From Escherichia coli (GTDB taxonomy: Bacteria; Pseudomonadota; Gammaproteobacteria; Enterobacterales; Enterobacteriaceae): DNA of 64,000 nucleotides. How positions within the stretch are numbered: the stretch's first letter is position 1; each line of letters opens with the position of its first letter. Below are positions 35,697 through 40,022 of this stretch, piece by piece. The notes under the pieces were generated by a model. That model did no database searches and had not been told where the DNA came from. It worked only from the letters and a program-made list of their open reading frames with translations. The stretch is taken from the NCBI RefSeq assembly GCF_029227855.1, contig NZ_CP074356.1. One strand, written 5' to 3'. The position numbers and the translations under genes are program-made.

Positions 35697-36159
35697 CGTT
35701 TTACTCTGTGTTGGCAATAGCATGATGGGCGATGATGGCGCAGGTCCGCTGCTGGCGGAAAAGTGTGCCGCCGCGCCGAAAGGTAACTGGGTGGTGATTG
35801 ACGGCGGTAGCGCACCGGAAAACGACATCGTCGCTATTCGCGAACTGCGCCCGACACGACTGTTGATTGTCGACGCCACGGATATGGGGCTAAACCCCGG
35901 CGAGATCCGCATCATCGATCCGGATGATATCGCCGAGATGTTTATGATGACTACCCATAACATGCCGTTGAACTACCTTATCGACCAGTTGAAAGAAGAC
36001 ATTGGCGAAGTGATTTTCCTCGGCATCCAGCCGGATATCGTCGGCTTTTACTACCCGATGACCCAGCCGATTAAAGACGCCGTAGAAACCGTTTATCAAC
36101 GACTGGAAGGCTGGGAAGGGAATGGCGGATTCGCGCAGTTAGCGGTGGAAGAAGAGTAG
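35689..36159 (+). CDS. hycI: Hydrogenase 3 maturation endopeptidase HycI
   Basis: Track ORF 156 aa; N-terminal LLCVGNSMMGDDGAGP protease motif. Confidence 0.93.
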   Translation: MTDVLLCVGNSMMGDDGAGPLLAEKCAAAPKGNWVVIDGGSAPENDIVAIRELRPTRLLIVDATDMGLNPGEIRIIDPDDIAEMFMMTTHNMPLNYLIDQLKEDIGEVIFLGIQPDIVGFYYPMTQPIKDAVETVYQRLEGWEGNGGFAQLAVEEE

Positions 36160-36215
36160 TTCGTAGACAAACATGTTCACGTTTTGGAATTTGGACGTGC
36201 AATTGTGACGTGTAG

Positions 36216-36259
36216 ACGGGTGTTTACATATTGTGAACACCCGTGTGATCAACTACTAT
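36216..36259 (+). promoter_or_regulatory. Putative promoter and operator of the HigBA-like module: 9-bp perfect inverted repeat overlapping the -35, then a -10
   Basis: acgggtgtt-N11-aacacccgt inverted repeat at 36216..36244; TTGTGA (36231..36236), 17-bp spacer, TACTAT (36254..36259); 66 nt upstream of the toxin ATG. Confidence 0.45.
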
Positions 36260-36325
36260 AGAAAAATAAATCCGAAGGAATGGTAGTCCAGGTTTAGTCA
36301 TTCAGGCGCTAATAAGGAAGTTAAA

Positions 36326-36637
36326 ATGCACATCATTTCGAAAGCGCCATTTGAAGAGTGTGCGCGCAAATATCCTAACGACGCTCTGGCTCTACACTCA
36401 TTGTATCGGGTTATTAAGGAAACGGATTTTTCTACACCAGAAGAAATGCGAACGGCGTTTCCTAACCTCGACAATTTTAAATATCGCAACAAATGGTACG
36501 TTCTGGATGTCGGCGGGAACAATCTTAGGGTTATTGCCTACATAAACTTTGTTAATAAGCGGTTCTTTGTGAAGCACATAACGAATCACGCAGAGTATGA
36601 CAAACTGACACGTTACTACAGAGAGAACAAAGAATGA
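36326..36637 (+). CDS. Type II toxin, HigB-like (RelE/ParE superfamily mRNA interferase)
   Basis: Track ORF 103 aa; resembles E. coli HigB (MH.I.KA...YP, FP.LDNFKY, VGGN.LRV, TH.EYD); AAGGAAG Shine-Dalgarno; stop overlaps the next ATG (ATGA). Confidence 0.8.
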   Translation: MHIISKAPFEECARKYPNDALALHSLYRVIKETDFSTPEEMRTAFPNLDNFKYRNKWYVLDVGGNNLRVIAYINFVNKRFFVKHITNHAEYDKLTRYYRENKE

Positions 36638-37053
36638 CTGCTAATGCTGCACGCGCTGTTAAAGCAACAAGAGAACTGGTCAATGCAGTCCCCTTTCTGG
36701 GAGGCAGTGACTCAGAAGATGATTATCGTGAAGCACTGGAACTGGTCGAATATTTGATTGAAGAAGATGACACCAATCCACTTATCGACTTTCTGGCGAG
36801 CCGCATTGCAGAATATGAAAACAACAACGAAAAGTTTGCAGAGTTCGACAAAGCCGTTGCAGCAATGCCGGTTGGCGTGGCGTTACTTCGTACGCTGATT
36901 GATCAACATAATTTGACCTATGCGGATTTGAAGAACGAAATCGGCTCTAAATCTCTGGTCAGTCAGATTTTGTCTGGGCAACGATCCCTGACGATATCCC
37001 ATATTAAGGCACTTTCAGCCCGATTTGGCGTTAAGCCGGAATGGTTTCTTTGA
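36634..37053 (+). CDS. Type II antitoxin, HigA-like (XRE-type HTH)
   Basis: Track ORF 139 aa; C-terminal HTH (SKSLVSQILSGQRSLTISHIKALSARFGV); same architecture as HigA; translationally coupled to the upstream toxin. Confidence 0.8.
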   Translation: MTANAARAVKATRELVNAVPFLGGSDSEDDYREALELVEYLIEEDDTNPLIDFLASRIAEYENNNEKFAEFDKAVAAMPVGVALLRTLIDQHNLTYADLKNEIGSKSLVSQILSGQRSLTISHIKALSARFGVKPEWFL

Positions 37054-37079
37054 TTTTGACTGATGCCAAACCCAAGATT

Positions 37080-37104
37080 GCCCGATGCGCAACGCTTATC
37101 GGGC
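37080..37104. terminator. Hairpin between the antitoxin and convergent ascB (weak terminator or REP-like)
   Basis: gcccgat-N11-atcgggc followed by TTT on the plus strand. Confidence 0.4.
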
Positions 37105-37131
37105 TTTCCTGGTTCGTGCGACGGTAGTTAC

Positions 37132-40022
<2,891 letters not shown>

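Follow-up and report, generated by a model that had tools for sequence, protein, structure and literature searches.

We analyzed the spacer between hycI and ascB in a 64-kb stretch of Escherichia coli DNA (contig NZ_CP074356.1; hereafter the window), which carries a pair of genes resembling those for a toxin, HigB, and its antitoxin, HigA. The spacer spans 36160-37131 (972 bp), between the last base of hycI (36159) and the end of ascB (37132), which converges on it from the minus strand. An earlier note, made from the letters of the window, had described a gap of about 1 kb here, with a HigB-like protein of 103 amino acids (aa) and a 139-aa protein with a helix-turn-helix (HTH), and had contrasted it with a short spacer in K-12. 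Both open reading frames were found, and the corresponding spacer is 158 bp long in K-12, while that of O157:H7 measures 123 bp. The features of the module are listed below; population counts here and throughout refer to 5426 complete E. coli genomes, and orf251 is a gene present in other alleles of the locus.

36162..37059, + strand: segment without counterpart in the K-12 and O157 spacers (promoter, higB, higA)
36162..36311, + strand: upstream region specific to the window allele, which replaces orf251 (343 of 5426 genomes)
36216..36244, no strand: palindromic operator O1 (ACGGGTGTTTACA tat TGTGAACACCCGT), an inverted repeat with 13-nt arms, 12 of 13 positions complementary
36231..36259, + strand: putative sigma-70 promoter, TTGTGA at 36231-36236 (in the right arm of O1), 17-nt spacer, TACTAT at 36254-36259
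36314..36320, + strand: Shine-Dalgarno sequence AAGGAAG, 5 nt 5' of the higB ATG, kept in the allele of clone D i14 (locus L005)
36326..36637, + strand: higB-like toxin gene, 103 aa, RefSeq WP_000547555.1
36634..37053, + strand: higA-like antitoxin and repressor gene, 139 aa, WP_000126294.1

The toxin gene comes first and the two genes overlap at ATGA, as the note had stated: the higA ATG lies at 36634-36636 and the higB TGA at 36635-36637. A toxin gene followed by an overlapping gene for an HTH antitoxin is the order of the HigB family. The guanine-plus-cytosine content was 0.41-0.46 over 36200-37000 against 0.50-0.63 in hyc and asc, which bears out the impression that the segment is richer in AT than its flanks. 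The interval alignment that had been proposed for mapping the boundaries was informative. That is, the identity with the K-12 and O157 spacers stops at 36161 (TAG plus TT) and restarts at 37060 (CTGATGCCAAA), and K-12 lacks the pair at this site, where its presence would have spoken against an insertion.

Comparison of the two proteins with the HigB and HigA families, also proposed in the note, assigned both of them. The toxin matched Pfam HigB_toxin (PF09907) over residues 22-93 (E value 4.6e-23), and its phmmer alignment with K-12 HigB (PDB 5IFG_A) was full-length (residues 1-100, E 7e-22). The AlphaFold2 model of the toxin, built with 40 homologues, had a predicted local distance difference test (pLDDT) score of 90.1 and the order alpha1-3/beta1-3/alpha4 (helices 7-15, 17-32, and 38-44; strands 57-62, 67-74, and 79-87; helix 88-100), that is, the three helices, three-stranded sheet, and C-terminal helix alpha4 of the RelE-like fold. 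The model superposed on K-12 HigB (6KML_C) with a template modeling (TM) score of 0.94 and a root-mean-square deviation (rmsd) of 1.0 Å, so that the RelE/HigB fold is conserved in the 103-aa protein as modeled. Its next structural neighbors were the ribosome-dependent RNases Cami1, YoeB, and RelE, and the toxin also matched phrog_5734. In the antitoxin, the XRE-type HTH that had been described corresponds to an HTH_3 domain at the C terminus (residues 85-138, E 8e-9). As expected of a K-12-type HigA, the protein aligned over its full length with K-12 HigA (5IFG_B; residues 9-138, E 2.5e-35), its N-terminal domain aligning with the dimerization and toxin-binding domain of that protein. RefSeq names the toxin 'type II toxin-antitoxin system HigB family toxin' and the antitoxin only 'helix-turn-helix domain-containing protein'; in NCBIfam, the toxin had no family and the antitoxin gave a chance match only. 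What lies at 36162..37059 is an intact toxin-antitoxin operon of type II, belonging to the HigB (PF09907)/HigA family.

The candidate autoregulatory operator of the note is the inverted repeat O1, the core of which (GTTTACATATTGTGAAC) lies at 36222-36238. The family motif GTTYACANNNTGTRAAC occurs once in the window, at this core, against 0.01 occurrences expected by chance, and it sits 5' of the toxin gene in 23 of the 35 fetched loci, which cover about 10 genera. In about 20 loci of other genera, all of which have GTTYACA-N3-TGTRAAC upstream of the homologous operon, a 103-aa toxin and a 139-aa antitoxin are encoded with the same overlap, and the operator motif stands at fixed distances. There are usually two copies of the motif in these genera, at -73 and -35 from the start codon, 38 bp apart and with a short leader; copy 1 overlaps a -35-like TTGTRA and copy 2 follows a TATAGT-like -10. 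In contrast, the single operator of E. coli stands at about -104, and its leader is longer. The operator motif is the sole upstream DNA conserved between the window allele, the allele containing orf251, and other species. The region 36162..36311 showed no recognizable homology to the upstream DNA of the orf251-higBA allele save the operator core, the -10-like element, and the Shine-Dalgarno sequence, and the 150 bp 5' of higB, apart from the operator, had no homologue in the fetched loci or in the rest of the window. A palindromic operator within the operon's own promoter is the arrangement of HigA-type systems, and O1 is the predicted binding site of a HigA dimer.

A scan with the sigma-70 consensus gave no promoter over the threshold on the + strand, TTGTGA-17-TACTAT scoring 8 of 12. 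We therefore infer the promoter from the geometry across species only, as it is the same in the clone D i14 allele (TTGTGA-17-TATAGT) and in other genera (TTGTAA-17-TATAGT).

The locus varies among E. coli genomes. The higA gene of this locus was full length in 2508 of the genomes, always as a single chromosomal copy, and higB, counted as present at 80% or more of its length, was found in 1091; 581 more genomes had only its last 33 bp. These counts mean that at least 1417 genomes have an orphan antitoxin. That is, in over half of the carriers the toxin is deleted and higA alone is kept. The order hycI-orf251-higB-higA was seen in B2 strains, for example clone D i14 and Nissle 1917, and in JNE23-001, in which orf251 is frameshifted. 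FUJ80154 and R13 have a truncated orf251, the last ~35 bp of higB, and higA, and in 09-02E an intact orf251 and a filler precede the last ~30 bp of higB, which are followed by higA. Since the toxin deletions differ in their junctions, they must be independent events, at least two in number, and both leave the ribosome-binding site of higA intact. Decay of higBA at hycI runs toxin-first.

The K-12 and O157 spacers were also informative about the history of the locus. After the hycI stop they contain the orf251 5' untranslated region and ATGT. At a GGATGT microhomology this start runs into the final 25 nt of orf251, a stretch that is identical in the 09-02E allele; a CTGA microhomology then joins the orf251 remnant to sequence 3' of higA. 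These remnants show the two spacers to be deletion scars and not empty ancestral sites. In Salmonella enterica the order is hycI-orf269-hydN-hypF, in which orf269 is an orthologue of orf251 (70-72% identical), and neither higBA nor asc is present. The Salmonella order hycI-orf269-hydN, taken together with the order hycI-orf251-higB-higA of B2 strains, gives the sequence of an ancestral hycI-orf251-hydN, then the gain of higBA, and then repeated decay. The Escherichia lineage acquired higBA early, at a position downstream of orf251, and the pair has since been passed on by vertical descent at this single site. K-12 evidently lost orf251 and higBA together, which makes the K-12 layout the derived state. 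The description of the pair as inserted between hycI and ascB holds on a deep timescale, given that Salmonella lacks higBA, but does not hold relative to K-12, whose spacer is a deletion scar. Among the fetched loci, no homologue in another genus adjoined hyc, asc, or orf251, and no donor context was identified.

Between alleles 3-5% apart in DNA, orphans included, higA had 7-15 synonymous against 0-2 non-synonymous differences (ratio of non-synonymous to synonymous rates, dN/dS, 0-0.05). For higB, the comparison of the window with clone D i14 gave 5 synonymous and 0 non-synonymous differences. These patterns indicate that higB and higA are both kept as proteins by purifying selection, and the constraint is strong on the orphan higA as well. 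The HigB variant of JNE23-001 (WP_000547559.1, L004:1728-2039) differed from that of the window by 5.5 non-synonymous and 3.5 synonymous changes, which are small numbers; its constraint may be relaxed.

The pair is distinct from the canonical higBA (ygjNM). The window toxin is 39% identical to K-12 HigB and the window antitoxin 47% to K-12 HigA, and the pair lies at hycI-ascB, whereas the canonical locus lies at fadH-rlmG (L009:8253-8980). A megablast search with K-12 higBA detected a locus separate from the window pair. The two systems share the Pfam families, the fold (TM 0.94), the gene order, the ATGA-type overlap, and the architecture of the antitoxin (YgjN/YgjM; 5IFG, 6KML), and in K-12, too, the operator is palindromic, its arms being 3 nt apart. 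However, that operator, CCGTTGCCA-atc-TGGCAACGG, is unrelated to O1. The canonical higBA gave a match in 4377 genomes and was full length in 2825; many others lacked the first 237 bp of higB and kept higA. In TUM1886, the closest genome (100% identical over the region), only 117 bp separate rlmG and fadH (L035:2692-2810) and the canonical higBA is absent. The hyc-linked pair is thus the sole operon of this family at either site in such strains. The term paralogue used in the note is right in so far as the lineage and the locus are distinct (39%/47%), but in the sense of a second copy it fails for the closest genome, TUM1886, which has no canonical higBA. The canonical locus likewise decays toxin-first, in line with Table S1 of PMC3464220 and PMC7232551. 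The higBA knockout of CFT073 (Norton and Mulvey) was considered as a test of the hyc-linked pair and was rejected, as its primers encode the canonical HigB.

The nearest characterized relative of the toxin was SehA of Salmonella. Its locus was found by rebuilding SehB peptides from the mutagenesis primers in PMC7160566, searching with them, and fetching the contig. The gene order of this contig, fdoHI-fdhE-sehDC-STM4032-sehA-sehB, is that of the published description, and the C-terminus AYYRGNKE and the internal peptide PFNEAM of the protein match the published sehA primers. A scan of genome contigs with peptide patterns had yielded no Salmonella or Escherichia locus, the patterns being too specific. 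The Salmonella protein P0030 (69% identical, same residue numbers) was also considered as SehA and was rejected, since it lies in a prophage immunity region with a 139-aa antitoxin.

In the comparison with the CHARACTERISED toxins, the window toxin was 58% identical to SehA against 39% to K-12 HigB. Alanine substitution of any of eight SehA residues, Y53, D61, H88, Y91, K93, T95, Y97, and Y98, abolishes toxicity (PMC12817084). All eight are present in the window toxin, and K-12 HigB has four of them, with N61, F93, V97, and H98 at the others. By these comparisons, the window toxin is placed in a large enterobacterial subclade containing SehA. The SehA/SehB system (STM4031/STM4030.S) resembles the window pair in its 103-aa PF09907 toxin, its overlapping genes with the toxin first, its palindromic promoter operators, and an antitoxin composed of an N-terminal dimerization domain and a C-terminal HTH. 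It differs in its palindromes (TTTTCAAnTTGAAAAC against GTTYACA-N3-TGTRAAC at O1), in the length of SehB (142-148 aa against 139 aa), and in its chromosomal site, fdhE-yiiD beside sehCD instead of hycI-ascB. Because of the distance of its antitoxin from SehB, the other operator, and the other site, we do not regard the window pair as the orthologue of sehAB; its toxin is of the same branch. The palindromes of K-12 HigA and of sehA are both unrelated to O1 in sequence, and cross-regulation among the three systems is therefore unlikely.

Closer homologues are found on mobile elements and in other genera. Toxins 76-80% identical to that of the window are encoded by chromosomes and plasmids of Leclercia, Enterobacter, Klebsiella, Citrobacter, and others, and the antitoxins in the fetched relative loci are also 76-80% identical. 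Toxins 60-80% identical occur in 531 plasmid records, the top ones listed being 78.6% identical. Cronobacter phage JK004 has a homologue (toxin 76.7%), and further close homologues lie in immunity regions of Salmonella prophages. The plasmid and phage modules (Leclercia, Enterobacter, Klebsiella, Cronobacter, Salmonella prophages) share the gene lengths, the overlap, and the operator motif with the E. coli copy. They differ in having two operators (-73, -35) against one at about -104, and the E. coli copy occurs only in the chromosome, once per genome, and always at hycI.

These results can be considered in the following model. A HigA dimer would repress the operon by binding the palindrome at 36216-36244, into which the -35 element extends; the N-terminal domain of HigA would bind and neutralize HigB; and when HigA is depleted, free HigB would shut down protein synthesis. 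Repression, neutralization, and the stop of translation are carried over from the family (PDB 5IFG, 6KML; PMC2814082; PMC7160566). As to the molecular target, the toxin may follow the mode of SehA, that is, inhibition of RNase III and not cleavage of mRNA. SehA is reported to bind the double-stranded RNA-binding domain of RNase III and to inhibit this enzyme; its induction leaves no cleavage signature in coding regions, and its toxicity needs rnc (PMC12817084). Toxicity, neutralization, repression, and target are thus all predicted for the window pair by analogy with its relatives. On the basis of sequence proximity, we regard an autoregulated HigB/HigA operon with a SehA-mode toxin as having an even chance of being correct. 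The earlier note had left both target and physiological role as unknown; the target can be narrowed by the likeness to SehA (58%, eight of eight residues; PMC12817084).

Several points weigh against this model. The only other characterized PF09907 toxin, K-12 HigB, cleaves translated mRNA (PMC2814082). The mechanism of SehA comes from one laboratory, and the first sehAB paper (PMC3868539) was retracted. The window antitoxin is 45% identical to SehB against 47% to K-12 HigA, and is not a cognate SehB. The frequent loss of higB suggests that the toxin is dispensable or costly, and the single operator of E. coli, where other genera have two, means that regulation may differ. A literature search found no experimental study of this locus. 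In addition, K56, R68, H88, and Y91 are common to the window toxin, SehA, and K-12 HigB, and three of them (K56, R68, and Y91) do not vary among the 40 aligned sequences. In RelE-type toxins, residues of this kind are read as possible catalytic or RNA-binding positions. On this reading the toxin might still be a ribosome-dependent RNase, and the SehA mutant data do not discriminate between that mode and the RNase III mode. As a separate matter, the retracted sehAB paper (PLoS Pathog 2013, PMC3868539) is still cited later for the operator and for complex formation.

The same shared residues are part of the case that the toxin acts like K-12 HigB (YgjN), entering the ribosomal A site and cutting translated mRNA, with the module and its regulation unchanged. 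The two toxins have the same Pfam family and fold (TM 0.94, rmsd 1.0 Å), and the next structural neighbors, Cami1, YoeB, and RelE, are ribosome-dependent RNases. K56, R68, H88, and Y91 occur in all three toxins. In vivo, K-12 HigB cuts an mRNA only if it is being translated, and does so between codon positions 2 and 3 (PMC2814082), and the family is tabulated as ribosome-dependent mRNases (PMC11980606). However, the window toxin is 39% identical to K-12 HigB against 58% to SehA, K-12 HigB departs from SehA at four of the eight critical positions while the window toxin has all eight, and SehA itself acts without coding-region cleavage and in an rnc-dependent manner (PMC12817084). We consider this mode a real possibility, though we lean away from it. 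Another role that comes to mind is abortive infection, in which phage infection would free HigB and translation would stop before the phage cycle ends. Both proteins matched PADLOC models of PD-lambda-2, a defense system discovered experimentally in E. coli by Vassallo et al. in 2022 (component A, E 1.2e-15; the N-terminal part of component B, E 2.4e-14, profile positions 9-115 of 402), and the two systems resemble each other in that a HigB-like gene comes first and a HigA-like HTH stands at the start of the second gene. The homologues in Salmonella prophage immunity regions and in Cronobacter phage JK004, and the match of the toxin to phrog_5734, also fit such a role. PD-lambda-2, however, has three genes, which encode a HigB-like protein, a fusion of an HTH with a peptidase, and a P4-antitoxin-like protein (PMC9519451); the window antitoxin lacks a peptidase domain, and a third gene is missing, ascB being next, so that the pair is not a member of that system. 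Moreover, component B, and not the HigB-like component A, is the toxic part of PD-lambda-2 (PMC9519451). The E. coli locus lies between housekeeping operons, outside any defense island, and the toxin is deleted in over half of the carriers. An anti-phage function as the main role of the pair is in our opinion very unlikely.

Deletion of the toxin also raises the view that the pair is a selfish addiction module stranded in the chromosome and devoid of host function, of which HigA is kept as a putative anti-addiction or immunity factor against related HigB toxins of plasmids and phages, or as a stand-alone regulator. This view draws on the genomes with higA and without higB (at least 1417), on the toxin deletions (at least two, independent, the higA ribosome-binding site spared in both), on the 7-15 synonymous against 0-2 non-synonymous differences in orphan higA, and on the 531 plasmid records with 60-80% identical toxins (top ones listed 78.6%). 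On the other hand, purifying selection acts on intact higB too, which is still found in 1091 genomes, cross-neutralization at 76-80% identity is presumed, and the operator is lost in the orphan alleles, which bears on their expression. We give this view hardly any credence. A broader combination can also be formulated from the SehA-mode model: the hyc-linked HigB might arrest growth by inhibiting rRNA maturation that depends on RNase III, and not by cutting mRNA; RNase III inhibition might be common to the large subclade of plasmid, phage, and chromosomal toxins, with K-12 HigB as the outlier; and orphan HigA (at least 1417 of the 5426 genomes) might be maintained because it neutralizes the 76-80% identical toxins of incoming plasmids and phages. 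We think that this combination is rather unlikely to hold as a whole.

The pair is catalogued but uncharacterized. A search of the accessible literature found no paper naming HigB, HigA, and hycI together and no paper citing the four RefSeq accessions, and three HigB_toxin clusters of E. coli appear, undescribed, in a survey of 950 genomes (PMC10790755). As the pair belongs to a known family and is a long-standing resident that K-12 has lost, and not a recent insertion, the finding is for the most part an ordinary one. The two genes in themselves bring little, being a recognizable HigB/HigA module that is already annotated in RefSeq, and HigB_toxin clusters have been counted before in population surveys of E. 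coli. What it offers is an E. coli representative of the SehA-like HigB branch, which allows the question of the RNase III mode to be asked in a standard host, namely, whether the reported inhibition of RNase III is found outside Salmonella as well, or whether toxins of this branch are ribosome-dependent RNases of the usual kind. The locus also presents, at one fixed site, a natural series of decay from the intact operon through toxin deletions with a conserved antitoxin to scars, which suits the question of why orphan antitoxins persist. For comparative work, it is a caution that the K-12 layout is here the derived state.

One further feature closes the spacer.

37080..37104, no strand: REP-like (repetitive extragenic palindrome-like) GC-rich hairpin (GCCCGATGCG...CTTATCGGGC) followed by TTT, common to the K-12 and O157 spacers

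This hairpin is part of the old spacer and lies outside the higBA module. The REP-like hairpin that closes the K-12 spacer sits 3' of higA in the window, and it probably serves as a terminator in both directions, for hyc/higBA and for ascB. No intrinsic terminator was predicted from the hycI stop to higB (36160-36325), and Rfam found no RNA family over 35900-37400. Since there is no predicted terminator before higB and the hairpin comes only after higA, hyc transcripts could read through into higBA under fermentative conditions. Any functional tie of higBA to formate hydrogenlyase is hypothetical. An extra REP element (ATGTAGGCCGGATAAGGCGTTCACGCCGCATCCGGCA) is present beside ascB in K-12 (L002:875-911) and in some other alleles, and is absent in the window and in O157.

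Some observations on the other alleles may be added. The product of orf251 (WP_001305268.1; L005:1803-2558), a gene absent from the window and present as a scar in K-12 (L002:761-810), has 251 aa and a signal-peptide-like N-terminus, and gave no Pfam, PHROG, or PADLOC match. In Salmonella its counterpart (269 aa) follows hycI, and homologues also occur in Klebsiella spallanzanii and Leminorella. The E. coli alleles of orf251 show a DNA divergence of 10-20% in 1272 genomes, which looks above that of the neighboring hycI. Two E. coli proteins of 203-209 aa (P0319, P0322), one of them named ygjM by its source, consist of the first ~50 residues of orf251 joined to HTH_3 and may be in-frame orf251-HigA fusions born of toxin deletion. 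B2-type strains lack the whole asc operon and have a hypothetical protein of 142-145 aa between higA and hydN (L005:3540-3968, minus strand; L008:2504-2941). Finally, outside the window, TUM1886 has beside tRNA-Ile (L035:22623-33073) genes for an integrase, an Icd-like inhibitor, a primase, a major capsid protein, a head decoration protein, and a small terminase, and this island looks like a phage satellite.

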